64,000 nt of DNA, taken from an uncultured Nitrososphaerales archaeon. Its GTDB lineage: Archaea > Thermoproteota > Nitrososphaeria > Nitrososphaerales > Nitrososphaeraceae. Location: positions 256,001 to 320,000 of the forward strand of contig CAWJCY010000012.1 in NCBI GenBank assembly GCA_963841565.1, read 5' to 3'. The notes beneath the pieces are model-generated. The model was not told the DNA's origin. It made no database searches and worked only from the letters and a program-made list of their open reading frames with translations. How positions within the stretch are numbered: the stretch's first letter is position 1; each line of letters begins with the position of its first letter. Shown one piece after another: positions 950 to 63,201 of this stretch. The translations under genes were made by a program, and so were the position numbers.

Positions 950-1571
950 TTGATAGTAGAAAGAATGAGACCCCCGGATCGCAGATTGATTTATGAAAAC
1001 GGTTACTCCTTTTGTGGAAAGATAATTCCTTTAATGTTAGCCGTCGCGCTGGGGTTGGGACTAATGGGATCCTCATGCTTGATAAAAGGCTCGAGTGGAG
1101 AGGCAAACCACACTCTCCCCCATATGCAAAACACTACCGGATTAACGCCTTCGATTTCAACTAGAGCACTAATTCAGCCAGTTCTGCTAGCCCCTATTGT
1201 GGTGTCTGGTGAAAACTTATTCATAGTTTGGCCGGACAATAGAACATCTGTGTCGCAGGAACCGGACTTTGATAGAGGCGCACTTGCCAGCATTTAAAAA
1301 TACTGGCCATGCAAATTGGGATATATTTTTCGTTCGAAGCTACGATCACGGTCAAACCTTCACAGAACCAATCAATTTGAGTAATTCAACGAACGGAACT
1401 TCCATTGGTGCAGAGATCGCTGTACATGATAGGGATCCTAATCACCTTAGCGTTTATGTTACGTTCTGGGACAATAAGACAGGTGAAAACACTCCATATT
1501 TCGTATTTAGTAATGATGGCGGAATTAAGTTTGGTAAGCCTGTTATGTTGAACGTTACTACAATACGTTAA
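950..1571 (+). CDS. Secreted BNR/Asp-box (sialidase-like beta-propeller) repeat protein, split by a +1 insertion
   Basis: ORF 950-1297 (signal peptide, APIVVSGENLFIVWPDN) and ORF 1269-1571 (RSYDHGQTF and FSNDGGIKF Asp-box motifs) join if one base is removed at GCCAGC 1286-1291. The true start may be the later ATG (MLAVALG). Confidence 0.65.
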
Positions 1572-1782
1572 CTGGTAATGTACGATTTCCTGGTTTCAGG
1601 TTGAGTGTTATGATTTTCTTAGCTATCCACTATAATCAGTCAAGAGAATAGAAATACTCGTATTCAATAATCAATATAAAGACACGATGACATGATGTCC
1701 ATTAATCAGAATTCGTTGGGATCAGACTTATTTAACATACTTTAGGACCCATTCAAATAATTCATAAGTTCAAATACAATTT

Positions 1783-2766
1783 CTAATCGCAACTAGAGAC
1801 TTCATTTAGATTTGAATCGATGATGTGTATCTGATTCCTATTAACAGTAACACTAGTAGTTCTTAGACTGCTACAATCAAATAAAGAATCACTGAGCTCG
1901 GTAAGATGGAGAGTAGCATTTGTTAGATTTGAACTGCGTAAATCAGCATTGGTCAAGTCAGCAAAATCAAGATTAGCATTTGTTAGATTGGAGTACCCTA
2001 AAATTGCATGTGTCAGATCGGCGCTCAATAGATCAGCATCTGTTAAATCGGCGCTCAATAGATCAGCATCTGTTAAATCGGCATATCCAAGGTTAGCATT
2101 TGTTAGATTAGCGTGGCTAAAATCGGTGTCTTGTAGATCGGTATCGACAAGATTAGCGTTAGTTAGATTAGCGTGACGAAGATCAGAGTTGGCTAGAACA
2201 GCGTAGCTAAAATTAGCATTAGTTAAATCGGCACCAGGAAAAAGTGTATCCGTTAGATCAGCATCACTCACGTACGCGTCTTCTAGAACAGCGTTTGAAA
2301 GATTGGAATTTCTCAGATCAGCATTGTAGAGACTAGCATTTCTCAAATTTATTCCCGACAGATCACCAGAAATCTGAACATTGTCCAATGTTGATTTCTC
2401 TAGATTAGCATTCGAAAGATTAGAATGCAAGATTATTACCGAATCCAAATTTACCCTCGTTAACGTTTTGTTAGATAAATCTAGATTTTCGAATGTGATC
2501 GGTTGTTTGAACTGTTTCCTTAATTCATTAAACTCTGAAACTTTAGCTTTAGATTTGCTGTCTTTCGTAATGTTTAGTGCCAGTTCATAGACTGATACTT
2601 TATCATCTTCTAATAGTCCAGCTAATCTCTTTGGAGTTATACTTATGTAGTCGGTAACCACTATGCCGACAATTGGACTAGCAATTACACCGATTATCGT
2701 GAATACAACTGCGGTCCTGTGTTGTGCCAACAGATTCATGAAGCGTCCGCTAGGCATGTCTGACAC
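1783..2766 (-). CDS. Pentapeptide repeat protein with N-terminal membrane anchor
   Basis: Long run of A(D/N)LXX repeats. Hydrophobic segment VVFTIIGVIASPIVGIVV. Confidence 0.9.
   Translation of the reverse strand: MSDMPSGRFMNLLAQHRTAVVFTIIGVIASPIVGIVVTDYISITPKRLAGLLEDDKVSVYELALNITKDSKSKAKVSEFNELRKQFKQPITFENLDLSNKTLTRVNLDSVIILHSNLSNANLEKSTLDNVQISGDLSGINLRNASLYNADLRNSNLSNAVLEDAYVSDADLTDTLFPGADLTNANFSYAVLANSDLRHANLTNANLVDTDLQDTDFSHANLTNANLGYADLTDADLLSADLTDADLLSADLTHAILGYSNLTNANLDFADLTNADLRSSNLTNATLHLTELSDSLFDCSSLRTTSVTVNRNQIHIIDSNLNEVSSCD
2017..2082. repeat. Exact 30-bp tandem repeat (2.2 copies) inside the pentapeptide gene
   Basis: ATCGGCGCTCAATAGATCAGCATCTGTTAA at 2017-2046 and 2047-2076, plus ATCGGC. 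Encodes a duplicated LTDADLLSAD. Confidence 0.9.
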
Positions 2767-2959
2767 GGAAGTCTCAAATTAATAAATACGAACCGATATT
2801 GAATATAAGTATTTCTTATATAAGAATCTTCTATAACACATTCATGGTGCCAGTGGGCTCCAACACTCTAGCGGTTCAAAAAGTAGATTCTGTACTTGGT
2901 AACAGCAGACTACTTTGTAATCCAAATCTATTTAAATCACCATATTTCATAGAACCCGT

Positions 2960-3496
2960 TTGAATAGGATAACAATGTTGTCATTACCTCTGTCCTTGTT
3001 GATTATCTCCAGTGTGGCAGTTTTGCCTCATTTCGGCCCAGATTTATTGGCACAGACTCCTCAACCAAGTGTTAACAAACAGGTTACCCTGCCTTTGGAC
3101 GTAGCCGATTCCATTTATAGCGCTAATACAACCAAGTTCTTAGGTTCAAAAAATATATCATTAACTCCTTACCGAATGACAGAGGAACGTTCCTCTGACC
3201 AAGGATTCCTAAAAGGCGTTGGAAATGTTACTAACAATCAGACTTATATAAGCACTCACTTATCTGATGAATTAATCCAGAGTATAGGTAATGGGACATT
3301 TGAGATTCCAGATGGACAAAGTATTGCTTGGATATCTTCTGCTATAGGAAGACCCGTTGATGATCGTTGGGTTTTCCATGGAATAATATTATTCAATAAT
3401 ACGCAAAGCGAATCATTGTCTTTACTAAATAATAGTATCGGTTTATCCAAGGATACTGTTGGCAATGAGCCAAATTATATCTGGCTTTTGGAATAG
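2960..3496 (+). CDS. Secreted hypothetical protein
   Basis: 178-aa ORF with signal peptide. TTTAAA TATA-like box about 25 nt upstream. Confidence 0.7.
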   Translation: MNRITMLSLPLSLLIISSVAVLPHFGPDLLAQTPQPSVNKQVTLPLDVADSIYSANTTKFLGSKNISLTPYRMTEERSSDQGFLKGVGNVTNNQTYISTHLSDELIQSIGNGTFEIPDGQSIAWISSAIGRPVDDRWVFHGIILFNNTQSESLSLLNNSIGLSKDTVGNEPNYIWLLE

Positions 3497-3609
3497 TGTC
3501 ATCTGCCACGCATCCAACTGAAACTAAATGATGCGTCTTCTATACCATATTATTCCTTGAATATTCCATATAAAACAGGATACAAAACAATAACTACAAC
3601 CGAGATTAT

Positions 3610-3736
3610 CGCAACCACGTCTTACGAGTCTAATACTCTTATCATTATCATCTACGAAGTTAGCAAATGTTTCGCCTGGCTCAATATCTAGTTGGTCGGC
3701 TATTTCTCTAGGAATTGGTAATATGAAGGGGGGTCT
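3610..3736 (-). pseudogene. Possible AbrB/MazE-type DNA-binding domain remnant
   Basis: Hand translation PFILPIPREIADQLDIEPGETFANFVDDNDKSIRLVRR resembles the AbrB motif IP..I...L.I..G. There is no in-frame start (upstream TGA). Confidence 0.35.
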
Positions 3737-3951
3737 ATCTCTTGGTCAAGCGGCATGAATCCTGGCGTATTCAGCCTTAACCTTCTTCCCTCCGACCAAG
3801 GTAAGTAGTGTTTGTGGAAGGTAGTTGGTCTTTATTGTCTAGCAACCTGACTTTATTATATCTTTCTTCATTTTACTGAGAATCTCAGATGTGTTCATAA
3901 AATAGGTCATAATTGCGAGAAGTATTGAAATTTGTGATAGTAACGATGTCA

Positions 3952-4824
3952 TTAATGACCAGGCAATATCGTTACAAAAAATACTTTGCTAGGATTCTGG
4001 TTTAGCTCATCTTCTTGTATTCTAAAAATTGCATAGGTTCGATCTTTAACAATACTTATGAAGTCATTCAGCTCATCATCTGATAGGTGTGTAACTCTTT
4101 CTTGTATTGCTCGGGTAACCCACCCCTTTGGATTAGAAACAGTGATTAAATTGCAACCGTCAACGGGCATTGGGACTTCGACTGCCATTAAACTTGTTTG
4201 ATTCTTTGTCCACTCCCTGATCGCATTTAACAATCCTCTAGGCAATTGGTTTCTGTAGAGATCATTAAGGACACGCTCCTTGTCCACTTTGTGATGCTGT
4301 ATTTCCACTAGTCTTTCCGTATCACAAGTGTGCCCAGTTAGGATTGGAACTAGTGAGGGGTTGAATTTATCCTTGTATATACATAAGGGATGATCAATTA
4401 AGCAATTTCGACATACATATCCGATGTAGCCGATCGCCTCTAGATCTTCAATTTTAGGTTGTAATACAAAATTAAAAGTCCTTTCGGCATGAGGAGAAGA
4501 ACTTCCACTGAATCTATGATATGATTCTCGGCTCGGCATGAATGAAATCTCTTCTCTCAACGTTTTGATCTCTGCAATCTTGCGGAGAATATCTAATGAC
4601 CGATCAAGAGGATTCTTGTCTAATTTGGGAGCATGAAAATTAGAGTGAGGTCTGTAATGAGGTGACATGTGAGACTCGAATCTTGAAGATTTAAAGTTCA
4701 TTATTGGAGATGTGAAGGACGACGAAAGAGGATTTGGTGAATGCATGTCCCTAATATGTCTCTCCTTATTCCAACGCCTTGAAAACGGCTTTGAACAGAC
4801 CAAGCAATAATGTTTTTCTCTCAA
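3952..4824 (-). CDS. C2H2 zinc-finger protein of the type seen in thaumarchaeal accessory regions
   Basis: N-terminal CLVC..FSRRWNKERHIRDMH C2H2 motif. Second CRNC...HTC motif. Confidence 0.75.
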   Translation of the reverse strand: MREKHYCLVCSKPFSRRWNKERHIRDMHSPNPLSSSFTSPIMNFKSSRFESHMSPHYRPHSNFHAPKLDKNPLDRSLDILRKIAEIKTLREEISFMPSRESYHRFSGSSSPHAERTFNFVLQPKIEDLEAIGYIGYVCRNCLIDHPLCIYKDKFNPSLVPILTGHTCDTERLVEIQHHKVDKERVLNDLYRNQLPRGLLNAIREWTKNQTSLMAVEVPMPVDGCNLITVSNPKGWVTRAIQERVTHLSDDELNDFISIVKDRTYAIFRIQEDELNQNPSKVFFVTILPGH

Positions 4825-4841
4825 TTCGGATTGTCACTCTT

Positions 4842-4917
4842 TTTGACATGACACACTGTATTGGTGTATCTGGAGTTACTCCGGGAGTAACTCGAGTTAC
4901 TCTTCGAGTGTGTCAAA
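4842..4917. promoter_or_regulatory. Nested palindromic repeat array upstream of the C2H2 gene
   Basis: GAGTTACTC (4873-81), GAGTAACTC (4885-93) and GAGTTACTC (4894-4902), flanked by inverted TGACACAC (4849-56) / GTGTGTCA (4908-15). Confidence 0.55.
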
Positions 4918-5380
4918 GTAGCCATTTAATATTTAAAAGAACATCCTTGTTATTATACCTTTTTACATGAGAATATAGTATGACATTCGTAAACATTCCA
5001 TTAGTAACTATATCTTGAATTTGATTGGAGATGATGCGATTGCACAGATCTGTTTGCCATGATTTTTAGGAACGGTTGGAAGGCAACCCTATACTTGTCT
5101 TCAGTCTTCTTGGCGCGATGTCCTTCGGTAACTTTAAAGAATCCTCTTTGCTTCTGAAGCATTTTCTGATTTCGATTCTGCTCTTGCTCCTGTCATTGCT
5201 TCAAAATATCGAAGTTAGTCAACCAACAGGCAACTAGATACATAGTAAGAGAAGTATTTCTGCTAATCTAACATAGCGATAATCATATTTACTATTGATA
5301 ATTACTATTAGACAATAATAATCACTATGTACAATAAGACATAATTAAGTATAACTTTCAATAATAAAAATGGAACATAG

Positions 5381-5633
5381 GTGTCAATACAAGCGAAACA
5401 TCGATCCAGATCCGAAATAATATCATCGATTCTTCAAGTGATTAATGGCAACAGCTTAAGAATAACTGAGATTCACATCATACACCATATTAAAGGAGTA
5501 CTTGATCCATTTGCTTCAAAATGATCTCATCGAATACGCTGAAAGTGAACGTACATTTAAAACTACTCCAAAAGGCATGCAATTTCTGCAAGTATGGAGC
5601 GAGATGGATGGACTATTCGTAAGAAATCCATGA
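5381..5633 (+). pseudogene. Winged-helix regulator (thaumarchaeal HTH_45/DUF4364-like), frameshifted
   Basis: KHRSRSEIISSILQVINGNSLRITEI, then a frame change to TSYTILKEYLIHLLQNDLIEY..RTFKTTPKGMQFL. It looks like an internal deletion and is not at a GCAGC site. Confidence 0.65.
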
Positions 5634-7033: not shown

Positions 7034-7094
7034 TCTAGGTGGTAAATGGGTTCAGTTACAGTCTTTCATCTGATCAGCTCTTTTATTTAATTTG

Positions 7095-11056: not shown

Positions 11057-11488
11057 TTAGGTAGACTGGGTCTTCTCGGTTTCTTCACTTGTGTCTTTAT
11101 CTACAAACTCGTTCTTTCTTTCTTTAATTAGAGGAATCACCCTATCAACCAAAATGGAATCATAATCCTTGGCGTCTACGTCCAGTGTTAGAAGGAGGAA
11201 ATAATCTTCGTTAATCCTAATTGTGGCTCGTATGACTTTTTCGTACTTTCCAACTGCATATGTGAGATCACCTATTTTTGATTGGAATTTGATTCTAGTC
11301 TTGTGCCTTGTTACGGTCAACGCAGCATATTCTTCGTTCTCCTCGTCCGTCATGAGCTGTTCTAATCCTTCTCGGTGCTCTGCATTCAGAAGTACGCCAA
11401 ATTTATTGGCTATGCCCATCCATCGTACCGATGGGTCAAGATTCAATATCTTCTTTGAAAATTCGTAGAGGAGGTCATATTCGATCAT
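11057..11488 (-). CDS. Thaumarchaeal roadblock-like (DUF6659-like) protein
   Basis: ILNLDPSVRWMGIANKFG..IGDLTYAVGKYEKVIRATI pattern. Confidence 0.7.
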   Translation of the reverse strand: MIEYDLLYEFSKKILNLDPSVRWMGIANKFGVLLNAEHREGLEQLMTDEENEEYAALTVTRHKTRIKFQSKIGDLTYAVGKYEKVIRATIRINEDYFLLLTLDVDAKDYDSILVDRVIPLIKERKNEFVDKDTSEETEKTQST

Positions 11489-17620: not shown

Positions 17621-18239
17621 TCATTCTTCAATCGGCCTAATATCTGCGGAGTAGGCTAGGAGACCTGCTATAGTTTTGCAATCTTGAATCTCTCCTCTTA
17701 GGCATTTACGAATCGCGGTGCCAATTTTCATTCTTTTGATAGAAATATCCTCGTCGTCGTCTAGCCTGCCCCGCGGCACTTTTATCAAGTCAGTACATAC
17801 AAAGAGGTACATTAACTCCGTGTCATAACCAGGAGCGAGATAAAAAGTTGTCAAAAGAGAAAATTTTCCGATATAGCCTATTTCTTCGGCTAACTCTCGA
17901 TAAGCGAGCCTTTGCAGGAGATTCCCCTTTTTCGATTTTGCCCGCTGGAATCTCTAGTAAACTTCTACCAGTTGCGTGCCTGTACTGCTTAACAAGATAT
18001 ACATACGAATCATGATCTATGGGAATCATCCCCACTGAAGGGCTATGCTCCACTATCTCTTTTTCAATAATCTTACCATTCAAGGTGAATCTGTCAATTC
18101 TCAAGGAAATATTGCCTGAATGAATCTTTGTACTGTGTTGCACGTCGACCGATCGTGGGCGATTCTTCGCTAATTTCTGTACCATCTTGCCTACCTTCTT
18201 GACTGAATGTAATGTTCTAGGATTTCTTACTAACCCCAT
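17621..18239 (-). CDS. NUDIX hydrolase (ADP-ribose pyrophosphatase-like), split by a +1 insertion
   Basis: Deleting one base in GCGAGC (17904-17909) restores the Nudix box AGKIEKGESPAKAAYRELAEEIG and joins ORFs 17823-18239 and 17621-17854. Start uncertain. Confidence 0.85.
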
Positions 18240-18244: not shown

Positions 18245-18980
18245 TTAAGAAGAATATGTGAAAATTTCATCCAACGTTACAGCGAATGGTTTTCGTCCGC
18301 TAATTTTGAACCTTGTCGAGTTGCCTTTAGTACCTATCTCCTGTATGTATCCAAGTTTCTTGAAAATGGCAATTCCAATTTTGCCTCTTTGTCGATTGTT
18401 TCCACATGCTACTCGTTCCCTATCCTGAAGATCCTGGAGGATGAAGGTTCCATCCTCACTCTCATCTGATAACTCTAGCGCTCGCTCTCCAAATCTTATA
18501 AATGTAAGAGTTAGAATTATTGAGAGATCCCATGTATAGCGTCCTCGAACGTGACATAGATTGAGTTATCAATTGCGCCGCGAATTCCATTCTGTCTGTC
18601 TTACTAGTGTAGAATCTGTAAATATTTTGTCTACGATACTTTCTTTTTTCCTCTTGATTGTTATCAAACCAATAGACGAAGCCTTCCGGTTCAGGCATAA
18701 AAGGCTGAATTACTTTGATTCGGTTTAATTTGGAGTTCGAGTTGACTATATTTTGTGCAACTTCTATCATCTCGAAATTGACTAGATACTTCTTCTGACG
18801 ATGTGATTCAAGAACCATAACGATACCTTCGTCAATAAGTGAGCGTAGTGCGGTTTGAAAATTAGGGTCATAATGCCTTCCGGCCTCCCTAAATAATTGG
18901 CTTTCAGAAATGCTTCTGTGAATACCTTCACAGATTAACTGCTTCAATATCCATTTTTGCCATTCTTGGATAACTAGCAT
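18245..18980 (-). CDS. Hypothetical protein with putative winged-helix domains, 244 aa after repairing a +1 insertion
   Basis: Track ORF 18462-18980 continues open for about 77 more codons (WRAALELSDE...GNNRQRGKIGIAIFKKLGYIQEIG..RFK..*) if one base is removed from GCTCGC 18480-18485. Confidence 0.7.
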
Positions 18981-20310: not shown

Positions 20311-20863
20311 TTGAATAGAAGCAGCATTTATTCTGAATTCAAGTTATCAAATTTCTATGTTTCAATCTTTTACTGCGGTAAATTGGAAAATGTTAATGGA
20401 ACCAAGTTAGTAGAACAAACACGATACCGTTTTGAAAACGTTTACATTCAAGGAATTAATGTCGAGGCCATTTTTGGCTTGCGAGCACGTCGTCGAGGCT
20501 TTAAAGATCACGCTGGAAGCTCTTAAAAGAGGGATTATGGCTGCGAATCGACCCGAGCTTGACTTATTGTTGCGAATTTCTTGTACTACTCAAATTTCTA
20601 AGGCAATAAGTCATGCAGGGATAAAGTCTGGAAAATGTGTTTATTTTGTCATGTTTTCTAAAAATAAACGTGATTTACTCAAGGCTCGCTACTATGTGTT
20701 ACAATCGTTACCTGAATTTGATAGTCCCGAATTCGTTGTTGATGCATCAACACGAAATACTCTTGCAACCAATTTAGGTTTTGAAGCCGGCTCATATTTT
20801 CTGACTGATGATGACGAATTTCTTAAGTACCTTATTGAACGTGCAGCTCTAATCACAAAATAA
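20311..20863 (+). CDS. cgi121: KEOPS subunit Cgi121, split by a +1 insertion
   Basis: ELDLLLRISCTTQISKAISHAGIK...ERAAL. ORFs 20311-20526 and 20432-20863 join (IFGLQHVVEAL) on removing one base in GCGAGC 20481-20486. Confidence 0.82.
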
Positions 20864-21301: not shown

Positions 21302-22307
21302 TCAAGTGATCATCTCTGATATTGCAGGAGCTATTACCGGACTAAGATCTATTGCTTCAACGAATGCACCCATAGCTTCCATCTTAGGAACAGAATTTGT
21401 TGTCACTATCTTATCCACTCCAGCAGCCTTAATTTGTTTAGTCGACTCCTCAGTCATTAACGCATGGGAGCACATGACTGTAATACCCCGACAACCACCT
21501 GATTTCAAAATTTCAGCAGCTTTGATTATTGTACTTCCGGGTACTGACAATATCATCAATTAACGCAATATCTAGCCCTCGAATTCGGTCTCCATTTAGT
21601 GCCGACAAGTGATCAACTTTTATCTCTCCAGTGCTCCGATCTCTTGTTTTCTTCATGCAGGTAATATTATTATTTAACAGAATGGCAAACGACTTTGCTC
21701 TGCTAAAACCTCCTTCATCAGGCGACACTGTGATAGAGTTTTTTATATTCATTCCGAGTTTTGACTTTGCATAATCTGCCAGTAATGGTATGGCAGACAC
21801 GTTTATTGAATTCATCCTCTCTTCGAAGTATGATAACGCTCGTAAACTATGAATGTCTACCGTTACCATATTGCGAGCTCCAAAGATCTCAAACATATTT
21901 GCCAACAATTCGGTAGTTACTACTTCTCCTTCAAGAAATGCACTATCCTGTCGTGCATAAGCCATATACGGTACTACAACAATGATATCCTTTGCAGAAT
22001 CATCCACACATTTCTTCAGCAGCATTAGAGTTTGCAGTATGTGTCTGTCGACTTGTGGAGGGAATGCAGACTGAACTATTATGCATGTTTTATTTTTTAA
22101 TTTCTCCTTAATTCGAATTTTGCTCTCCCCGTCAGAAAATACCCTCAATTCAGGACAAATCATGCTCAAACCCATTGCTTTAGAGATATTGGTAGCTAGA
22201 CCTACAGATGATGGCCCTGCTATTACCACCTTTGGCGACAGCACGGGGCCTTTACGCAACGAATTTGGATCGACATCTCTCTCTAAATCCATATCATTCT
22301 TCCCCAT
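21302..22307 (-). CDS. prs: Ribose-phosphate pyrophosphokinase, split by a +1 insertion
   Basis: FSDGESKIRI, PYMAYARQD, VDIHS, SPDEGG. PRPP motif IDDIVSTGST is restored by removing one C of ACCCGG (plus strand 21537-21541). Confidence 0.9.
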
Positions 22308-22832: not shown

Positions 22833-25161
22833 TTAACCTGTTCCTACGCTCTCAGTGGGGGCAGCCCCAACATTAGGCTGTCCAAATTGCTCAGAGATGC
22901 CTTTATACATGTTCAGTTCCTGGGTTGATAATGGCCTAATCTTCTTGACAGCCTCCTCAAAGTGCTTCATATGTATTTTAAGTTCCTTCACATGAGCATC
23001 AGCTTCTTTTGAATCCTTGTATTTTGATATATGTTCTCTTAGTGCTAACATGACTGCGGCAGAGGATAAGGACGAAATGTCAGCACCTGTATATCTATCC
23101 GTAATATCTGCCAACTTTTCAATATTAACATCCTCTGCTAGAGGTTTTTTCTTTGTATGAATCTTTATGATTTGAACCCTTGAATCTCGATCCGGTGAGG
23201 GTACGTATAGCAACCTATCAAACCTACCTGGTCTGAGTAAAGCGGTATCTATAATGTCAGGACGGTTTGTAGCAGCGATGACAATGACGTTAGTCAGTAC
23301 TTCAAGTCCATCTAATTCTGTCAGCAGTTGGCTTATCAACCTCTCAGTTACATGAGAGTCTCCAAAGTCGCCGCCTCTTCTTGGGGCAATGGCGTCTATT
23401 TCATCGAAAAAGATGATACATGGAGCAGCTTGCCTTGCTTTGCGGAACACCTCGCGAACTCCTTTCTCTGACTCGCCAACCCATTTTGAAATAAGCTCTG
23501 GACCCTTAATGCTTATGAAATTAGCTTCACTCTCATTGGCTGCTGCCTTTGCCATCAATGTCTTGCCTGTTCCAGGGGGACCGTAAAGCAAGATTCCCTT
23601 TGGAGGTGTGGCGTCAGCGTAGGAAAATATGCCCTGATACTTGAGGGGCCATTCGACGGCTTCTTGCAATTCCTGTTTAATCGATGCTAGTCCTCCAATG
23701 TCATCCCATTTCACATCAGGAACCTCTACGAATACTTCCCTCATCAGCTGATGGTTCCATTTCTGTGACAACGTCTAGAAAGTCCTGCATAGTAACAATG
23801 ATCTTCCTCAATGTTTCTGCCGGTATGTTTTCAGAAGTTAAATCAACTTCAGGCAGGACTCGCCTTAATGCTCCAAGCCCTGCTTCCCTTGTCAAGGCAT
23901 GCAGGTCAGCTCCCACGTATCCATGAGAAATATCTGCAAGCTTTTCCAAGTTTACATCTTTAGCAAGAGGCATCCCCCTTGTGTGTATCTGCAATATTTC
24001 TAATCTGCCCTTTCGATCTGGTACACCGATTTCTATTTCCCTATCAAATCTGCCCGGACGCCGTAGAGCCTCGTCAATAGCATTAACTCTGTTTGTTGCC
24101 CCTATGACTACCACTTTTCCCCTTGTAGACATACCGTCCATCAGAGAGAGTAGTTGAGCTACGATTCTCCTCTCGACTTCTCCTGTCACTTCTGCTCGTT
24201 TTGGAGCAATCGAATCTATTTCATCGATGAAAATAATTGAAGGTGCATTCTTTTCAGCCTGCTGGAACACATTTCGTAATCTCTCTTCTGACTCTCCATA
24301 ATACTTACTCATTATTTCTGGACCACCTATAGTGTAGAAATTGGCATTTGTTTCATTGGCGACTGCCTTGGCCAACAAGGTCTTTCCAGTTCCAGGTGGG
24401 CCATGAAGAAGAACGCCTTTGGGTGCTTCTACACCCAGTCTCTTGAATAATTCTGGATGCCTTAGGGGAAGCTCAATCATCTCCCTCACTCGGCCAACGG
24501 CGTTTCCCAACCCTCCTATGTCCTCGTATGTTATAGAAGGTGCTCCACCTTCCTTTGAGACTTGCACTGCCTTTGCACTCTCCTCAGAAACAGTAATCTT
24601 TGTAGATGGAGTAACTATCACTGGGCCTGAGGGATTTGTAGCAATCACCACTAGATCAATTCTTTGACCCATAACGTTCAAAGGTATCGTATCGCCCTTT
24701 GTCATCAACTGGCCATTAAGATACTCTGCAAGATATTCCTCTGCTCCTACAATTCTCAGTGGTTCTGTGGGGGCAAAGGTTATGCTCTTTGCTTCCTTAG
24801 ATTGAACTTTTTTAACTTCAATTTGATCGTTGATCCCAACGTCAAGTCTGTTTCGTGCGTAGCCATCAATACGAATTAAACCGTTGCCTCTATCGGTACT
24901 TCGTGCAGGCCAACTTAGCACAGTTGTTTTCTTTCCAAGTGATGATAATTCTAGCGCGTCTCCACTTGTGATGCCTAGACGTTCGGCTACTTTGGGATCC
25001 ACACGTGCAATCTTTCTTCCTACATCGCGTTGTTCTGCTTCTGCAACTTTCAAGGTTGCCCCCCTGGGGTCCTTCCTAGAAGCATTATTGGATTCATTTA
25101 TATCGTTCTGGACTGGGCCCTTCCCATCAAAGTTGTCATCTTTACTATTATTATTTGAAAT
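22833..25161 (-). CDS. cdc48: CDC48/VAT AAA+ ATPase, split by a +1 insertion
   Basis: N-domain plus two AAA modules (GPPGTGKT twice). ORFs 23716-25053 and 22833-23771 join as [15 protein letters not shown] on removing one base near 23745. The frame is open upstream to an ATT at 25161. Confidence 0.92.
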
Positions 25162-26644: not shown

Positions 26645-28097
26645 AGTCTGCGACTCCAACTCACTGAGCGAGAACCATATTAATAGATGTGAAACGAGCA
26701 CAAATATTGATTAGTAGTAGCTATTTGAGATCTGCTTAAGAAATATCCTATATTTCAACGGATACGAATATTTCTACATGTGATTTGATTCCATAGAAGG
26801 ATTCCATACAGGAAACTTCATGGTAGCTAAAGATAAAATTAGTATCACTACATAGTCCTTCTTAAAAGGGATGGTAATGGAAAATTCCAAAGCAGGGTAA
26901 ACAAGTGTTGATGTTATTTTTTTATACTATAAACTACAAAATTAGTTTCGAATCTATTTCTACGAAACTTTTTTTCATTCCTACCCCTTTTGGTATTAAT
27001 AGTTCGAACCGGTATCTGCCTTGAGGAGCTTTCTATACGTTCAATCATGCAATGGCAAGAATAACAAAAATCGCATCTTACACATATCGTTGATTTCCGA
27101 GAGCGAGCAATGAACGCAGTTCTTGTAAGTTAATGAATTGGCAGGTTCAGCCAGATATTCATGCATCTATAATTTCTTCCAAAGGTATAGATACAAATAC
27201 CAGTAATTATAATTTCGGTCACCTAAAGTAGAGGGAGGGTGTATCTCTTTTTTTCTCCGTAAGCGAATTATTTCTTGAGTATGATAGAATTCGGGGGTGA
27301 AATCAACGAAATCTTTCCACGTCATCTTTCCACTAGCCAATGATGATCCGGTCATAGAGACGTGAACAAGCGAACAATTATCTCCTTGTCCCTGTTTTTC
27401 TGTGTAGAAAATTACCTTCGCTCATTGACGTGTTGAAAACTTCCAAAGGGTCCCACTATTCTGCTACTAAACGGGTTCAACGATAAGCGAATTTTCTTTT
27501 AGCGTTAATATAGGCCAGAATACTGACGCACATGTGTGATGAATGCCAGAGGGGCTTGCTACATTTGGAGGATTATGACCCTCCGATGCTGTTGTTGGGG
27601 GGCATAATGCACTTTTCTATGTCAGTGCTCATTTTTACATAAAAGTCACTCTGTCAACAAATTTGGCAGTTATCTTGAATCATTCGACAAAGTTAAGGTC
27701 ACGTTATTGAAACGTGACCGTCATAACTCTGCCGGGGTTTGGAGTTATTTCAGTCGGTAAATTAGGCTCGTGATCCCTCTTTAAGAGGATTTGTGACTTT
27801 CGATTCCCAAATTATGATATTAATCTTTTTCTATTCTTGGGTGTTACATTCAACTGAATTCCATGAATCAATTATCCTTCTTCCTACCTCCTTAACCTGC
27901 TCAATCCTAAGTATTTTGAACCAAAGTGCATTATCCTACCTTGCTTAATGAGGAAAATATGGTATAACAATGAGGGCCGGGCCGAGCTTTCCAAAATTAA
28001 TCTCGCAGGCGCTAGCAGGAGCTCTTGTTTAATTAAATTTGTCTACTAAGCAGATCAAACAGCTAATCACTTAAATTCTTGAAAATACTAAAGCTCA

Positions 28098-30902: not shown

Positions 30903-31460
30903 ATGAGGTCACCTAACTATGAAAATAATAAAATTCTTATCTTGCATTGGATACACTTGAATATAGAGAGAAGGAATGTGAACAAAGCTCCCAACGACAA
31001 TCCAGAGCCAGAGAAGGGAACTGCCCATATTGGAAAGTTAAAACCAGACCATACAAAATTATCTTCTTCACTAGTATCTTCTGAGCCCCCGCTGCACAAG
31101 AGAATTCTAGTGGTTGACGATAGCCCAGATATTTTGTTTACCTTACGTGTTGGTCTAGAAAGTGATCCAACTATGCAAGTCTATGGTTATGATAATCCAG
31201 TAACTGCATTAGTAGAATTTACACCTAATTTTTACGATTTATTACTAATTGACGTTAACATGCCTTTAATGGACGGTTTTCAATTAGCCCAGAATCTAGT
31301 ACGGAGGGACCTCAATGTCAGGGTTTGTTTTATAACCGCTGGAGAAATAAATATGGACGCAGCAAGAGAAGTGCATCCACTTAAAAGTATAGGCTGTTTC
31401 ATCAAGAAGCCAATAGCTACAGAACAGCTGTTAAGGCGTATTAGAGCAGAGTTAGAATAG
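30903..31460 (+). CDS. Response regulator receiver (CheY-like) protein
   Basis: RILVVDD, DLLLIDVNMPLMDG, FITA, FIKKP. True start probably downstream of 30903. Confidence 0.9.
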   Translation: MRSPNYENNKILILHWIHLNIERRNVNKAPNDNPEPEKGTAHIGKLKPDHTKLSSSLVSSEPPLHKRILVVDDSPDILFTLRVGLESDPTMQVYGYDNPVTALVEFTPNFYDLLLIDVNMPLMDGFQLAQNLVRRDLNVRVCFITAGEINMDAAREVHPLKSIGCFIKKPIATEQLLRRIRAELE

Positions 31461-35091: not shown

Positions 35092-36082
35092 ATGGGTTGT
35101 TGCATGACTGATCTAATTTACGGTAGAGGAATTACAGATCTAATAAGGGAAACGCCCTTTTACTTTAGCATCTTCAACAAGATTATAGGGATAAAGTACT
35201 TTCATAGTAAACCTTTCATGTACGGTTCTGCAGATATCATAAACGTATGCAATCTGCATTGCACGCATTGCTACTGGTGGTTGAACAGAAAAAGTAACGA
35301 ACAGGATGGGCTTAGCTCTGAGGAATGGAGAAAGATAATAAAAAACACATTCAAGAAACATAATACTTTTATTGTGACATTGGTCGGTGGAGAACCTACC
35401 CTCAGACCTGATATTATTGAAGTTTTCTGTGAAGAAATGCCTAGGCGAGTTTGTGTGGTAACCAATGCTACATTTCCCTTAAGAAGATATAAGAATTTGT
35501 ATTTCTATTGGGTTTCGATAGACGGTACTGAAAGTATTCATGACAGCATCAGAGGTAAGGGAACTTACGCAAAAACGAAGCAAAATATACTTGATTATAT
35601 CAATGGTCCACCAAATCGGCGTAAGCCAGCATGGAAAGACATTTGGATAACGATGACCATCAACTCACAAAATCATTCGTGCATAGATGGCCTCATCGAA
35701 GAATGGAATGGAAAAGTAAACAAGATTGGTTTTCAATTTCATACACCATTTTCAATGGATGATCCCTTGTGGATACCCTTCGGACCTGAACGTAGCCGCA
35801 TGGTAGACAAACTCATTGAACTGAAAGGCCAATATCCAGATTTCGTAATTAACAGTCAGAAACAGTTAGAATTGATGAAGGGAAACTGGGGTGGGACTGG
35901 AACAACACCTATAGAGTGTCCTTCCTGGGCAATTCTATCCCTGGATCACTTGGGTAGAATAAAGCGAGCCATGTTGTATAGGCAGTGCTGACACCAAGAA
36001 TGGATTGAAACCAATCTGTGAACGTTGCGGACTTGGTTGCTACTCCGTTATGGTCGCAAATGGGTTAAAAGGAAACAATTAA
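35092..36082 (+). CDS. Radical SAM protein with a Cys-rich C-terminal domain, split by a +1 insertion
   Basis: CNLHCTHC, GGEP. Removing one base in GCGAGC 35964-35969 gives IKQPCCIGSADTKNGLKPICERCGLGCYSV..* ending at 36082. Confidence 0.85.
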
Positions 36083-36278: not shown

Positions 36279-36797
36279 ATGAAGAAGGGAGTTAAAGAAT
36301 TCTTCCAAAAATACAGAGATACCCTCTTACTAAATAAGTCTATTGCTGTCAGTGGGCTCATATCATTTGCGATAGGAATGTGTTTTACTGAACTTTATGC
36401 AAATTATGCTGGTCCTGAAAGTAGTATTGAAAATTCGATTTATACACTTGTCATAGGTTATGCTTCTTACCTTCCGATATTTGCATACCTTTTCTATAGA
36501 GATAATAAGGATCGCTATGTCGATCCCAATAATGGAAATAGGAATACAAACAAGTTATTACTAGACATAAAGAAATTGTTTACAGCATTCTCGGCTTCTG
36601 AATGTGTATTTATCGTTACCAAAACTTATATCCATTTCCATCAATTAGAATTAGGATATTTAGAGGCATATCAAGCGTATTTCGTCGCAGAACTGGTAGC
36701 TTGGACTTTCTATTTTGTTTCAATGAACACGATCCTAAAGGCTGTAAAAATGTACGGAATATATGAGAATTCACGAAAGCTATGCGACGCCAATTAA
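36279..36797 (+). CDS. Multi-pass membrane hypothetical protein (thaumarchaeal family)
   Basis: About 4 hydrophobic helices; GGAG SD upstream. Confidence 0.7.
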   Translation: MKKGVKEFFQKYRDTLLLNKSIAVSGLISFAIGMCFTELYANYAGPESSIENSIYTLVIGYASYLPIFAYLFYRDNKDRYVDPNNGNRNTNKLLLDIKKLFTAFSASECVFIVTKTYIHFHQLELGYLEAYQAYFVAELVAWTFYFVSMNTILKAVKMYGIYENSRKLCDAN

Positions 36798-37458
36798 TAT
36801 ATCCAAAACTGCAATTAGTGTACTTACTCTCATGAAACGGAAAGGGCTTTACATTCCCCCGAACTTTTTCAATAAATCAGACGATCGGGGAAACTTGCTT
36901 TGTAGAGTCGCTGAATGTAATAAGCAACCAAAACTCCCATTCAGGTACTTTTGCAGCAGGTCCCATGCAAAAGAATTTGCCAAATGGCACTTTCTGCATT
37001 GTACATGGATCGGCGTGAGATTAGCTATTTTCAAGAGAGACTCGTATGCATGCCAAAAGTGTGGTAAATCTTGGAACAAGGAACAAATAATTAAATTGAC
37101 TAGGCGCAATATGCGATTCTTGAATTTTGCAGATGTATTGGATGTAAAGGGAACCGATTTAGAATGTGATCATATCCAACCAGTGGTGCAGCTTGTTGAG
37201 CGTTTCCGTAGGGTATCTAAAATTCGTAATGCCAGTCCAACCAACTCATCGAACAATTTGCCGTCTACTAGGGAACGATTGCTCTCCTACGATAACCTCC
37301 GAACACTTTGTTCAAAATGTCATAGCAATATAACTATCAATTTTACAATGACTAGACACTATGAGAGTAAGTTGCGATCATCTGCAGAAACAGCTAATGC
37401 TATGATCAAGTATTACGCGATCGAAAAGGACAATAAGACGGGTCCAAAATTAAAATAG
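36763..37458 (+). CDS. HNH endonuclease with an N-terminal Zn-finger
   Basis: CRVAEC..FCSRSH; RDSYACQKCG; LECDHIQPV; NLRTLCSKCH. Confidence 0.8.
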   Translation: MRIHESYATPINISKTAISVLTLMKRKGLYIPPNFFNKSDDRGNLLCRVAECNKQPKLPFRYFCSRSHAKEFAKWHFLHCTWIGVRLAIFKRDSYACQKCGKSWNKEQIIKLTRRNMRFLNFADVLDVKGTDLECDHIQPVVQLVERFRRVSKIRNASPTNSSNNLPSTRERLLSYDNLRTLCSKCHSNITINFTMTRHYESKLRSSAETANAMIKYYAIEKDNKTGPKLK

Positions 37459-57217: not shown

Positions 57218-57682
57218 TTACTTGACATGCAATGATCCTGCCACGCTCTCATAGGCCTCTTTCAATTTGGGAACAGTGTCATATCTCCAAAGGTCCTTCA
57301 TGGTTATCCATTTAAATCGGTCATGTTCTCTACTAAGTATTATTTTCCCGCTTTTTGATTGGAAGAGGTATGGATGGATATTATATGAGGTATCTGGATT
57401 TTCGGGGTCGATTGCAAGAAGTACATTGCCTGACCTCACTAATTGTATTTTGCTGCTGTCCAAACCAGTTTCTTCGTTGATCTCTATAATGGCCTGTGTA
57501 AGCGGATCGTTTTTTTCTAAATAGCCACTCACAGCTCCCCATTTTTCCTTCATAGTTCTCACACTAGTGCTTCGTCTAAGGATTAACACTAGGCCATCAA
57601 ATTCCAAGAAAGCAGTTACTACATCGATCACTGTGAGGTTTGGCATCCTTATTTCAACTTTCATAGACACGCCTAATAACAT
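57218..57682 (-). CDS. NUDIX hydrolase
   Basis: WGAVSGYLE..DPLTQAIIEINEETG. Confidence 0.88.
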   Translation of the reverse strand: MLLGVSMKVEIRMPNLTVIDVVTAFLEFDGLVLILRRSTSVRTMKEKWGAVSGYLEKNDPLTQAIIEINEETGLDSSKIQLVRSGNVLLAIDPENPDTSYNIHPYLFQSKSGKIILSREHDRFKWITMKDLWRYDTVPKLKEAYESVAGSLHVK

Positions 57683-57828
57683 TGTCGAGCACTCTACATT
57701 CGGGGAGAACCATCAATACGTTGGACCGCTATATTATACGAATACTATCGTCCTCTCCTTCGTCTCAGATTTGCCTGGATCTCAATATGTCAGGAACTTC
57801 TCTTCAGGAAGAGTTGATATTGGCTCAA

Positions 57829-58650: not shown

Positions 58651-58844
58651 GATAAGGGTGGGATAGCGCCTACTATAAATTCGCTAATAGCTGTTCACTT
58701 GATAGCTGATTATTTAGTCCTGAGTTCAATTTGCCTCAATGAATCGAGAATTTAGGATAAAGGCTCTAGATTGGCAAATCTACACCAGGATTATGTGACG
58801 TAAATTTATAAAATGCAATAATATACCGTAGATACATTCGCTAA

Positions 58845-59510
58845 ATGGATGCTAACTTACTTGACATTAATCGTAACATAGAAAAGGGGAATCTAGAGGA
58901 TAGGAGTAATTCTACGAATGTATCCGAGGACATCAACTTAGAAAGCACGGCCTCAGAAGGTTTTGTGGATGAAACACCTAGCAGCATGCAGGAAAGCAAT
59001 TTGATAAACGGATCTGTCCTAGCCGAACCTACTGATAAGACTAGTGAGCACGCAACAGAAGATGCCGCAAAGTCCAAATTTTTTGCTATCAGGATAACAG
59101 GTGGGCAGGAGCGAGTCGTCGCCAACATTTTATACACAAAAATTACTACAAAGAAATTGAAAATTTTTTCGATTTTGGTGCTAGAAAACTTCAAAGGCTA
59201 CATTATAGTCGAAGCACCTGACGCAAATGTAGCATATGAAGCGATGAGCGGAGTGCGACACGTTCGTGGACAAATACGTGGGGAATTGCCTTTTAAGGAT
59301 ATTGAAGGCTATCTAGTTAAGAAACCTGTAGTAACTGATCTGAGCATAGATAATATGGTAGAGGTGGTTGCCGGACCCTTCAAATCCATGAAAGCAAAGG
59401 TAATCAGAGTTGACTACGAGAAACAGGAGGCAACAGTGGTTCTTCTCGATTCACCATATCAAATCCCGGTGACCGTTGATGCAAACTATCTCCGCAAATT
59501 GATTCAGTAA
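58845..59510 (+). CDS. spt5: Transcription elongation factor Spt5 (NGN+KOW) with an acidic N-terminal extension
   Basis: FAIRITGGQE, KGYIIVEA, VEVVAGPFK. Confidence 0.93.
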   Translation: MDANLLDINRNIEKGNLEDRSNSTNVSEDINLESTASEGFVDETPSSMQESNLINGSVLAEPTDKTSEHATEDAAKSKFFAIRITGGQERVVANILYTKITTKKLKIFSILVLENFKGYIIVEAPDANVAYEAMSGVRHVRGQIRGELPFKDIEGYLVKKPVVTDLSIDNMVEVVAGPFKSMKAKVIRVDYEKQEATVVLLDSPYQIPVTVDANYLRKLIQ

Positions 59511-59619
59511 GGTGAAAAGGCTCCAATTCAGATTTATTGTTCAGATTTCTGATTAAATAAGTGGTTAGTTGAAGTAGCATAATCAATTTATATCCAGGTA
59601 TAGCCTTTTGTTCTGCTGT

Positions 59620-60102
59620 ATGGGAGAGAAGAAGAGTATTTCCGCTCTTGTAAGCGGCGGAGAGGCCAGTGCAGGTCCTCCTCTGGGCCCTTCGTTAGGC
59701 CCAATGGGTCTTAACGTATTACAAGTTGTAAACACCATCAATGAAAAGACTAAAGACTTTCCTGGCATGAAGGTACCTGTCAAGGTCGAAGTTGATACCG
59801 AAACGAAGCAGTTTACCGTAGAAGTAGGCATACCTCCGACTGCGGCCCTTATTGCAAAAGAAGGTGGGTTTGGCAAGGGATCCGGTACTTCGGGAACCGA
59901 CTACGTGGGAGATTTGCCGATAGAAAAAGTTGTGAAAATAGCAAAGATGAAACTAGACAGTTCCTATGCGATCGACATCAAAGGAGTCGCTAAAGAAGTG
60001 ATCGGATCCTGTTTAAGTATGGGAGTAAAAGTAGATGGAAAACTTCCCAAAGATATTTTCGCTGAGATATCCAAAGGAAACTATAATGAAAAGCTTGTAT
60101 AG
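59620..60102 (+). CDS. rpl11: 50S ribosomal protein L11 (uL11)
   Basis: GGEASAGPPLGPSLGP, GMKVPV, GSCLSMGV. ATG at 59620 preferred over the track start. Confidence 0.95.
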   Translation: MGEKKSISALVSGGEASAGPPLGPSLGPMGLNVLQVVNTINEKTKDFPGMKVPVKVEVDTETKQFTVEVGIPPTAALIAKEGGFGKGSGTSGTDYVGDLPIEKVVKIAKMKLDSSYAIDIKGVAKEVIGSCLSMGVKVDGKLPKDIFAEISKGNYNEKLV

Positions 60103-60168
60103 ATAGTTTCTAGAGTCAATGTGAATTGGTAAAATACGATTCAATTTGCATCAATTACCTATTATTTT

Positions 60169-60861
60169 CTACTTCTTTTTTGCGATGGATGGGTTCGAAA
60201 CATACGCATCTGAATCTGCTACAACTGAGTAGCTTTTCCCTTTCTGAGTTTGTAATTTATCAACGATAGCAAGCCCGAAACTTGCTCCAGAATTGCTTGG
60301 GATATCTTTTGGCTCGGCTAGGCCTCTTCCTATAGCTATGACCCGACCATCCGTATCGTAAAGTGTAGCAAGAGCGATCGAGTTATTAGCGCTAGCTGGT
60401 CCAGAATTGAATATGACACCATTGATATAATAGAACCCTAAAATATCTTGTCTGGATGAGTCAACCTTAATTCGGAGATCTACTGGCGGGGGTCCGCCTT
60501 CTGTCCCATTCACAGATAGTTTGAAGTCCTTTACCTTATCAACGGTCTTCTGGTCTATGAAAAGAATTTCGAAAGGGGATACAAAACCTGGATTGATGGT
60601 TCTTAATTCAGCAGATCTTTTGTATTCGTTTATGATCTTGCCTTCTGAATCAAAAAATGTAGCGCCAATTGTGACATTCGTCATAGCCTCGTTCCCAATG
60701 TTTTTCAACTCCCCAAGAACATGCATGATGTTATTATCATCCACATAATTGTAAACATGATTTATTTCAAGATTATTTTGGGGGGTAGAGTATGAGTTAG
60801 GCGTCGTACAAGACATGGAGAACAAAAAAAGGATTCCGAATAGGAGAAACTTTCCCTCCAT
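60169..60861 (-). CDS. FxLYD-domain secreted protein
   Basis: Two repeats: GELKN...ATFFDSEG and GVIFN...ATLYDTDG. Confidence 0.8.
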   Translation of the reverse strand: MEGKFLLFGILFLFSMSCTTPNSYSTPQNNLEINHVYNYVDDNNIMHVLGELKNIGNEAMTNVTIGATFFDSEGKIINEYKRSAELRTINPGFVSPFEILFIDQKTVDKVKDFKLSVNGTEGGPPPVDLRIKVDSSRQDILGFYYINGVIFNSGPASANNSIALATLYDTDGRVIAIGRGLAEPKDIPSNSGASFGLAIVDKLQTQKGKSYSVVADSDAYVSNPSIAKKK

Positions 60862-61133
60862 GCAATTGCACCTAAGGTTAGGGAGGGCTATCTAAAAAGG
60901 CTTCATATAATTCCTTAATTCTTAAGCAACACTGACGACAACTAACAGAATCGGATCAGAGCCATCCTGGCAGATCCACTGGCGTCCAACTTCCCAATTG
61001 GACTTAAAACATTATGAACAGAACGAAGGGATACGAGTATGCCTTGGATTATTAGGATTTTGATGGATCAAATAACTATGTTAATCATAAGATAAATAAA
61101 GGAACAGCCCGTTAATGAGCTAAGGCGAGGATA

Positions 61134-61571
61134 TTGGACAACAGAGCGGCGAATGACCGAGATGATGAAAATGTAGCCAATAACGATGATGATGATGATT
61201 TTACCACAACCACAAATGCAAGAGCTAATTTGTTGACATTAATGGATACATTCATTCAACAAATCCTCAATATTAGAAAAACACTATTAGGTGTTTCTAT
61301 CTCCGCTTTAATCTTAGCTCCTATCGCTATCGGTCTCTCGGTGTACTTGATTAGACATCCATCTTTCTTTGCTATTCTAGAAATAGAAAACGAATTTGGC
61401 ACTGTATTAAGCATATTATTGGGTTCCGTGATTACAATTTCATGTATCTGGCTTTATGCAGGAATAAGGCAATACAAAAAGATCGGTTCATGGAATAGTC
61501 GATACAATGCCTACCTAAATGAGAAAAGCGAGATTAATAGAAAGATTTCATCCCAGTTTGGGTTGGAATAA
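61134..61571 (+). CDS. Two-TM membrane hypothetical protein
   Basis: Two hydrophobic helices; GIRQY..W..RY motif. Confidence 0.65.
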   Translation: MDNRAANDRDDENVANNDDDDDFTTTTNARANLLTLMDTFIQQILNIRKTLLGVSISALILAPIAIGLSVYLIRHPSFFAILEIENEFGTVLSILLGSVITISCIWLYAGIRQYKKIGSWNSRYNAYLNEKSEINRKISSQFGLE

Positions 61572-61676
61572 ATCGTAGTTCAACAATTACAGCTACATAT
61601 AACTCTAGTATTAATTTTGTATTTGTGCTTTTTTTAGAAATTCAACCCTCAGGTGCACACAATCCCCTACTCTTGC

Positions 61677-62000
61677 CTACTTTGAATCAGGGATCGACTC
61701 GCCTTGATTTCTTCTTCGCGGAAACATCTTTTCATAGGGGGCAAGTATAGTATTAAAAAAACTTATACCTTCAGAAGTGGTCATGTAAAGGCTAACTGAT
61801 TTCTTACCAATCAATCTTTCCTTTCTTGTAATCAAATTGTTTGATTCCATTTCATCGAGAATCACTTTATGTTTCTTGAGGTTTAGACCACAGAAACTTA
61901 TCAATGCTGTCTGGTTTAATTCCCCATATTCAGCAAGTTTCAGAATAATATCTTCAATGATATAGATCCTGTCTCGGTATGATACTGTAGAACCAGACAA
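61677..62000 (-). CDS. Winged-helix regulator (HTH_45/DUF4364-like)
   Basis: YRDRIYIIEDII...NQTALISFCGLN...TSEG..F. Confidence 0.75.
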   Translation of the reverse strand: MSGSTVSYRDRIYIIEDIILKLAEYGELNQTALISFCGLNLKKHKVILDEMESNNLITRKERLIGKKSVSLYMTTSEGISFFNTILAPYEKMFPRRRNQGESIPDSK

Positions 62001-62210
62001 CGTAAGTCACTCACTCGATGCTCCTGATTAGGTATATAGTTTATCCCACACTAATTCCAAGCGTATATTTTTTCAATGCATTGTAATAGGTTCTCAGATA
62101 TTTCAGACAATATGGTCTGGAAGCCTTTACATGAATTTGCCCTGAGTTGTTTAGCATAATAAGAATCTGATCTCCAAATAGAGATTTGAGGCCATGAAGC
62201 ACTCACAAAC

Positions 62211-63201
62211 CTATTTCTTGCCTAGCATACTAACCTGGGCAAGAAATGCCGTAAGCTGAATATCGGGGTGTGCTCCTACGCTAAGGCGGTAGTCGTACTC
62301 GGCCATAAGCTCAGCAAATTTTCCAGGATCACTTAATTTCATTGAGAAAGCTTCTTGAGCCACATATTTTAAGAAGTCTTTTTCTGACATACCAAATACT
62401 TGGGTCAATTCCAATAGCATTACTCTGGCTTCATTAAACTTACCGGCAAGGGCAAGCTTTATCACTTCACCTGCCTTTGCTCTACCAGATAAACCAATAG
62501 ACAATTCCACCTTTTCAGAGGATAAATTGTTATTCGTCGCCGCAGATTGCAGAATATTGATAGAATGGCGAAGATCTCCTGAAGTAGATTCGTAGATTCT
62601 AGAGAGGGCCTTATCATCAAATTCTATTCCTTCTTGCCTACAGATTTCAGATAAATGATTTACCACTTCCTGCTTAGGTAATCTGGTGAAGCGAAATATT
62701 ACACATCGACTTTGTATAGGTTCTATGAGCTGGGTAAGATAATTGCATATAATGATAAAACGCGTCGTCCTTGAACTATCTTCGATAATTCTCCTCAATG
62801 CAGTCTGAGCTTCAGAGGTCATCTCGTCAGCTTCATCGAGAATTATGATACGATAGGGCTTATCATTGCTTTCAGTGGTAGATGAGAACTTCATTACAGC
62901 AGCGAATTCTTTAACACGCTCACGGACCATCTTTATGCCACGTTCGTCAGAGGCATTCAATTCAAGCGTATCCCTTCTCCAATTTTCCCCCAACAATTCT
63001 TTGGCAATGCATAAGGCTCGCCGTAGTCTTGCCAACCCCTGCAGGTCCTGCAAATATTAAATGGGGTATTTCGTTAGGGTTCTTGATAAGATTTCGAAGT
63101 CCTCTTATAATATCACTTTGATTTGCTATCTGTTCAAGTGAGGATGGACGGTATTTCTCGACCCACATTAGACTTGATATAACTTGATGCTTACTTGACA
63201 T
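62211..63201 (-). CDS. rfcS: Replication factor C small subunit, split by a +1 insertion
   Basis: WVEKYRP, GPAGVGKTT, ELNASDERG, LDEAD, SRC. Removing one base in GCTCGC 63016-63021 gives KTTAALCIAKEL. Confidence 0.93.

Follow-up and report, generated by a model that had tools for sequence, protein, structure and literature searches.

Why should genes encoding core proteins of an archaeon be interrupted, again and again within one stretch of DNA, by a single extra base? The question is raised by a 64,000-nucleotide stretch (hereafter the window; G000:C12:256001-320000) of a 13-contig assembly of 2.05 Mb, which we call G000. This assembly has a G+C content of about 40%, a marker completeness of 88% and a contamination of 4.4%, and it encodes an archaeal AmoA (393 bits); we conclude that the organism, of the order Nitrososphaerales, is an ammonia-oxidising archaeon of the soil type. 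A reading of the window from its letters and open reading frames (ORFs), here called the sequence-only reading, had listed eight genes broken by one surplus base, had placed six of the breaks in the hexamers GCGAGC/GCTCGC or GCCAGC, and had ascribed them to a DNA modification at GCAGC or GCWGC that misled the sequencing. Our analysis indicates, with a probability of about 0.74, that the extra bases arose as consensus errors in a long-read assembly of nanopore type, most likely driven by N4-methylcytosine (m4C), and do not belong to the DNA of the organism.

For comparison we used 12 genomes of the same genus, which share about 83-91% amino-acid identity (for one test protein) and range in size from 1.5 to 4.9 Mb. 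Three assemblies of the genus consist of few contigs (13 in G000, and 20 and 30 in the other two, G003 and G001) and the others of 100 to 830. Orthologous DNA was compared both as nucleotides and by two-frame tblastn.

Surplus bases in the genes of the window

All six hexamers named by the sequence-only reading were located where it had placed them, and the DNA of the relatives, together with the restored reading frames, bears out its count of eight broken genes: five at GC[G]AGC (the surplus base is given in brackets), one possibly at GC[C]AGC, one at GTAC (Prs) and one at AGCT (Cdc48). In the five genes with GCGAGC/GCTCGC, one base is in excess at 17906, 18483, 20483, 35966 and 63019, where the relatives mostly read GCAGC. 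The window sites were compared with five fragmented (many-contig) relatives, G005, G008, G009, G010 and G012, and with G003 where it was intact; at seven of the seven sites tested, the surplus base is absent from the fragmented relatives available for that site (three to five of the five). Deletion of the base singled out by the sequence-only reading does restore open frames, of 207, 205, 247, 183, 330 and 331 codons at its six sites, and base removal over all the affected genes of the window yields frames of 183 to 777 codons. Pfam domains were found in the window genes for NUDIX, radical SAM, replication factor C (RFC), Prs and Cdc48 proteins.

The NUDIX gene, on the minus strand and with a NUDIX Pfam match, is broken at 17904..17909, which reads GC[G]AGC on the plus strand. 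Around its surplus base 17906, four relatives have one base fewer, with GCAGC in G009, G010 and G008 and GCCGC in G012, and removal gives a frame of 205 codons. A hypothetical gene of the minus strand contains GCT[C]GC on the plus strand at 18480..18485, which is GC[G]AGC when read in sense. At 18483, one base fewer is present in each of five relatives (four with GCTGC and one with GCCGC), and the restored frame has 247 codons. The plus-strand gene with GC[G]AGC at 20481..20486 (surplus base 20483) was named cgi121 by the sequence-only reading, on which this name rests, the fragment giving no Pfam match. Five relatives are again one base shorter, with GCAGC in G009 and G005, ACAGC in G012 and GCAAC in G010 and G008, and a frame of 183 codons is obtained. 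The radical SAM gene (plus strand, Radical_SAM Pfam match) is interrupted near its 3′ end by GC[G]AGC at 35964..35969; at the surplus base 35966, six relatives have one base fewer, with ACAGC in G012 and GCAGC in G003, G005, G008, G009 and G010, and the corrected frame extends over 330 codons.

The fifth gene, rfcS, encodes the small subunit of RFC on the minus strand and reads GCT[C]GC on the plus strand at 63016..63021, or GC[G]AGC in sense. Its surplus base 63019 is located directly past the Walker A motif; RFC domains were found, a 331-codon frame results from removal, and G003 has GCAGC, one base shorter. At this site alone, conspecific DNA was also compared, in the form of three metagenome contigs with 98.4-98.7% identity to the G000 contig: all three lack the surplus base and read GCGGC.

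The remaining breaks named by the sequence-only reading involve other words. In a gene for a hypothetical protein on the plus strand, a +1 frame switch joins the ORFs 950-1297 and 1269-1571. The switch is real, as a single 208-amino-acid ORF of G009 matches positions 902-1279 of the window and, shifted to the next frame, positions 1260-1559; its placement in GCCAGC (1286-1291) is plausible, the interval in which it can lie being 1227..1297. Removal of base 1288 gives a frame of 207 codons. The gene for the ribose-phosphate pyrophosphokinase Prs (minus strand, 21537..21543) has its surplus base at 21539-21541, beside GTAC (CCGGGTAC on the plus strand, GTAC[C]CGG in sense) and within GGGTAC/GTACCC, where G005, G008, G009, G010 and G012 are one base shorter; its two pieces match Pribosyltran_N and Pribosyl_synth, and 334 codons are restored. 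The gene for a Cdc48/VCP-type AAA ATPase (minus strand, 23743..23749) carries the surplus base 23745 at an AGCT contained in CAGCTG (CAT[C]AGCTGATG on the plus strand). This base is absent from G005, G008, G009 and G010; the domains CDC48_N, CDC48_2 and two copies of AAA are split across the ORFs 23716-25053 and 22833-23771, and a frame of 777 codons is recovered after its removal.

A ninth extra base, missed by the sequence-only reading, is present in a small ORF of the minus strand (GC[G]AGC at 27103..27108, surplus base 27105), where G003, G008 and G005 are one base shorter; how it affects the frame is less certain here, as the pieces measure only 41 and 62 amino acids. Among the window sites with this error, the sense strand reads GCGAGC at four and GCTCGC at two, so the word occurs in either orientation relative to the gene. 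At two of these sites, G003 also has six bases (GCTCGC at 17904 and GCGACC at 20481): the same places are miscalled in the assemblies of two species, and miscalled differently.

Several other places in the window were considered. A base after GTAC/ATAC at 11396 (GTAC[G]) is absent from G003; it was dropped as an error of G000 as an intact ORF of 143 amino acids, with a weak DUF6659 match, spans the site, and the error is more likely in G003. At 36279-37458, two ORFs of 172 and 231 amino acids, the second with an HNH endonuclease match, overlap at a +1 junction containing both GTAC and AGCT. This frame switch is seen in none of the relatives compared, and the ORFs may be two real genes. The differences from the three conspecific contigs at 61203, 61629, 62131 and 64597 (two 6-nucleotide in-frame repeat indels, one T-homopolymer of 7 versus 8, and a 4-nucleotide ATGA duplication) are ordinary strain variation or homopolymer error and are unrelated to the motifs. 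Finally, the segment 30970-31473 (ORF 30903-31460) matches many separate contigs of G005, G009, G010, G008 and G012 at 70-85% identity and is a multi-copy element or gene family within the genus.

Insertions locked to three short words

The expectation of the sequence-only reading that frameshifts would be enriched at GCWGC over the whole genome was borne out. We collected a reference-free set of 331 places in G000 at which one strand carries two overlapping frames, each of 80 codons or more. GCGAGC is the top hexamer in these junction windows (23 observed versus 2.66 expected, p = 1.7e-14) and GCAGC the top pentamer (69 versus 21.6). A long frame is rescued by deletion of the third base at 20 of 400 GCGAGC sites, compared with 34 of 6307 sites of 15 control hexamers. 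The window itself contains 18 copies of GCGAGC, versus 11.0 +/- 3.2 expected, and six of these 18 are error products. The reference-free scan also flagged AGCTGAG, a signal partly inflated by junction windows that end in stop codons; the AGCT[G] class was confirmed independently by a homology map.

This map relied on the DNA of G003 (1.16 Mb of its contig 1 and 40 kb of its contig 10), whose ORFs cover 761 kb, or 37%, of G000. It gave 146 raw two-frame events, of which 123 had a single gap of one nucleotide and 107 were left after de-duplication. For 48 of these 107 events, the gap falls on GCWGC or AGCT, versus 3.4% of random covered positions, and unbiased k-mer counts brought out GTAC as a third word. 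The events were then polarised by a reciprocal search, in which each of 292 merged events was assigned to the genome with the broken long frame: G000 received 54 insertions and 5 deletions, G003 received 144 insertions and 23 deletions, and the remaining 66 were unclear. The frameshift errors of G000 are almost all +1 insertions (54 of the 59 polarised). Deletions, considered as a second type of error, were discarded, as most of 37 apparent cases mirrored insertions in G003 and only the five were left after polarising.

The 54 insertions of G000 comprise 16 GC[G]AGC, 5 [G]GCAGC, 12 AGCT[G]/[C]AGCT, 5 AG[T]CT, 5 GTAC[C] and 11 others, 43 of them thus belonging to six product classes that derive from GCWGC, AGCT and GTAC. 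Once corrected, the sequence at the gap is GCAGC in 22 cases versus 0.6 expected, AGCT in 17 versus 1.4 and GTAC in 5 versus 0.9; among the 144 insertions of G003, the corresponding values are 36 versus 1.6, 43 versus 3.5 and 25 versus 2.4. Of 43 GC[G]AGC events, 29 correspond to GCAGC and only 2 to GCGGC in the partner genome, which identifies the inserted base as the G and upholds the lock to GCAGC, both as the sequence-only reading had proposed. GCWGC was therefore correctly named as an error motif, but there are two more: the lock to AGCT and GTAC is just as firm, and these two words explain the two genes (Cdc48 and Prs) that had been left unassigned.

The same words recur in the third few-contig assembly. 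From G001, of which 722 kb were fetched and 302 kb were covered, we obtained 46 polarised insertions, 9 at GCWGC, 18 at AGCT and 8 at GTAC. A first set of 25 events from this genome contained no GC[G]AGC, which would have made the error specific to certain genomes; this idea was rejected with the larger set, in which two GC[G]AGC are present and 9 of 46 insertions are associated with GCWGC. Among the 16 four-base palindromes, AGCT and GTAC alone rank high in both G000 and G003, CTAG being raised in G000 alone (9 observed versus 1.0 expected). The flank preference of GC[G]AGC is mild, with no C at position -1 in 34 sites versus 14% of all GCAGC sites.

Internal duplicates and methyltransferase genes

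Near-identical duplicates inside G000 (C6/C10, C4/C12, C5/C8 and a tandem in C11) offer a comparison within a single assembly. They differ by 29 isolated one-nucleotide indels, 11 of which are at the three motifs, e.g., GGCGAGCA versus GGC-AGCA. Substitutions between the duplicates touch a motif in 52 of 452 cases, versus a background of 3.7%; either allele was counted here, and this excess is suggestive only.

As for the origin of these duplicates, the ends of several contigs overlap others at 99.1-99.8% identity (C6:95769-128518/C10:1-32728, C4:3000-23327/C12:338294-358611 and C5:30901-44630/C8:1-13726). They are probably uncollapsed strain variants, which would account for the contamination estimate. 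In G000:C11:79865-98054, two copies of a 9.1-kb stretch lie in direct tandem and are 98.6% identical; a small circular element may have formed a concatemer here, or the repeat may be an artefact of assembly.

At the curated PF01555 cut-off of 26.7 bits, two methyltransferases of this family are encoded by G000, one on C6 (151.2 bits) and one on C3 (123.2 bits). In the genus, PF01555 proteins form three conserved groups, A (about 285 amino acids), B (about 350) and C (about 312), all of which are present in each of G003, G008, G009 and G010, and the three enzymes are kept at 92-95% identity. The G000 enzyme on C6 (85629-86660) belongs to group B and the one on C3 (62641-63513) to group C. The motif SPPY is present in 16 of 16 sequences of the three groups. 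Motif IV reads SPP[YF] in methyltransferases of the N4-cytosine type and [DN]PP[YF] in those of the N6-adenine type; from this signature, the beta-class PF01555 enzymes of the genus are predicted to act on the N4 position of cytosine. An attempt to tie methyltransferase B to GCWGC by its absence from G001 led to no verdict, the whole locus, including its neighbours, being unassembled in that genome.

Two other families were not found in G000, the Type I N6 enzymes (PF02384) and the Dam-like enzymes (PF02086). The latter are present in 8 of 12 relatives, and the gene is probably merely missing from the G000 assembly. Most genomes of the genus measure 2.3-4.9 Mb versus 2.05 Mb for G000, an assembly that lacks both the Dam-like gene and the conserved methyltransferase of group A; the real genome is probably much larger than the marker completeness implies. 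Fourteen sequencing runs contain at least 72% of the words of the window segment 15000-24900, which is no evidence either way.

From broken genes to a probable DNA modification

That the extra bases are real, the genes being pseudogenes or being decoded by programmed +1 recoding at a conserved signal, would agree with the presence of surplus bases at two same sites in G000 and G003. This explanation would leave core genes such as those for RFC, Cdc48 and Prs broken, in a genome with about one break per 6-13 kb. The base is also absent from five other species and from the three conspecific contigs, copies within G000 disagree with each other, and the trait tracks the type of assembly, being carried by those with few contigs irrespective of kinship. 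Programmed frameshifting is further contradicted by the fragmented relatives, which lack the base, and by the motif itself, which occurs in either orientation relative to the gene and thus cannot be a signal in the mRNA. These lines of evidence together make a real insertion or recoding very unlikely, indeed the least probable of the explanations considered here. The broken genes are almost certainly assembly errors and not mutations, as the sequence-only reading had argued from the core functions affected.

Motif-specific DNA modification, also put forward by that reading, is the best explanation of breaks locked to motifs. In the mechanism that we propose, cytosines would be N4-methylated on both strands at AGCT, GTAC and GCWGC, the modified base would alter the signal of the surrounding k-mer, and a basecaller that does not model the modification would emit one base too many. 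With both strands of the palindrome modified, both read orientations would carry the error, and a polisher would keep the surplus base wherever the flanking sequence favours it. The recurrent products would be GC[G]AGC and [G]GCAGC from GCWGC, AGCT[G]/[C]AGCT and AG[T]CT from AGCT, and GTAC[C]/[G]GTAC from GTAC, each of which would shift the frame and split the gene. The errors had been called probabilistic, which is correct in part; the surplus bases of G003 at the same places (17904 and 20481) point to a dependence on local context.

Long-read error induced by modification is a known phenomenon, and the broken genes are not a real feature of the genome. Published work offers both parallels and differences. 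According to the part of a 2024 Genome Research study available to us (PMC11610603), modification induces nanopore errors that survive polishing and are kept in assemblies. The errors described there are similar to ours in being locked to methyltransferase motifs, in persisting after polishing and in being usable for motif discovery without raw signal; unlike ours, they are mainly substitutions at N6-methyladenine, 5-methylcytosine and a few m4C motifs, recognised from strand-specific read mismatches, whereas we observe +1 insertions, recognised from broken genes of a finished assembly. An archaeal survey built on REBASE (PMC10609329) assigns, in its accessible part, GTAC (HG10, 8/8) and AGCT (HG19, 8/8) to orphan m4C methyltransferases that are persistent in Nitrososphaerales, and a study of marine metagenomes, again as far as available, gives AGCT as modified at 82-91% in metagenome-assembled genomes (MAGs) of Thaumarchaeota (PMC8919816). 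The present case resembles the HG10/HG19 set in the order concerned, in two of the three error motifs and in conserved PF01555 proteins with SPPY; it differs in GCWGC, which the accessible part of the survey does not list for the order, and in that the enzymes A, B and C of the genus were matched to family and motif IV alone. For another group of that survey, HG21, the site is given as unknown and the occurrence as Nitrososphaera only.

As to the chemistry, the sequence-only reading had favoured 5-methylcytosine, made by a C5 enzyme of the ApeKI/TseI/BbvI/Fnu4HI type, or phosphorothioation by dnd/ssp genes. M.TseI, M.ApeKI and M.BbvI are indeed C5 enzymes that recognise GCWGC/GCAGC, the same DNA word as here, and such a gene could be missing from an assembly with 88% of the markers and 2.05 Mb, versus 1.5-4.9 Mb in the relatives. 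However, a search for the C5 cytosine methyltransferase family PF00145, which matched 9 of 14 control genomes, gave no match in G000 or in five relatives, three of them 92-99% complete. DndC was found in none of the 13 genomes of the genus, in a search whose sensitivity is unproven, no control genome being above the cut-off. With three conserved enzymes of the predicted N4 type in the genus instead, a C5 or phosphorothioation system appears highly improbable. A more serious, though still unlikely, alternative is that the assembly errors arise because the basecaller or polisher handles these k-mers poorly in their own right, with no modification involved. The same classes of error occur in all three few-contig assemblies, and the two sites affected in both G000 and G003 suggest a strong dependence on context. 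For GCWGC, which has neither a published methylation in the accessible part of the survey of the order (PMC10609329) nor an assigned enzyme, a plain context weakness keeps some probability. Against it, the enriched words are short (quasi-)palindromes, the form recognised by Type II methyltransferases, and only two of the 16 four-base palindromes, AGCT and GTAC, are high in both genomes. It is these same two that have been published as persistent m4C motifs in the order (PMC10609329, as available), and three SPPY methyltransferases are maintained in the genus.

Errors driven by m4C are the explanation that we prefer, and the following points weigh against it. Of the 292 events, 66 were left unpolarised, and in G000 no motif fits 11 insertions (of 54) and three deletions (of 5). 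GCWGC errors are present in all three few-contig genomes, which leaves no negative control to separate modification from sequence context, and GCWGC is not among the motifs listed for the order in the accessible part of PMC10609329. The methyltransferase of group A is not in the G000 assembly, and comparisons of the methyltransferases with NCBIfam and PDB gave generic beta-class matches only, with no enzyme tied to a motif. The errors described in PMC11610603, in the part available, are mainly C>T and G>A substitutions and not insertions. The evidence, lastly, comes from finished assemblies, from which both the sequencing platform and the modification are deduced.

With m4C as the probable cause, the errors independently recover two motifs reported as persistent in Nitrososphaerales and point to GCWGC as a third, a plausible link. 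We suggest tentatively, and at slightly less than even odds, that GCWGC is a third, undescribed methylated motif of soil ammonia-oxidising archaea, N4-methylated by one of three persistent orphan SPPY enzymes, beside the enzymes for AGCT and GTAC. What interest the locus retains lies in this prediction, namely that the third conserved methyltransferase of the genus would act on GCWGC and form m4C.

Extrapolation from 59-125 events in 37% of the genome suggests that about 160-340 genes of the 2.05 Mb of G000 are probably split by artefacts, among them genes for RFC, Cdc48, Prs and KEOPS proteins. Pseudogene calls, the completeness estimate (88%) and pangenome counts would consequently be biased for G000 and its sister long-read MAGs. 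The errors are patterned, three motifs giving rise to six recurrent products, and this regularity could allow a correction aimed at them. If the tentative reading of GCWGC is true, the m4C epigenomes of uncultured lineages could be read from the frameshift positions of unpolished long-read MAGs, with no need for reads or signal.

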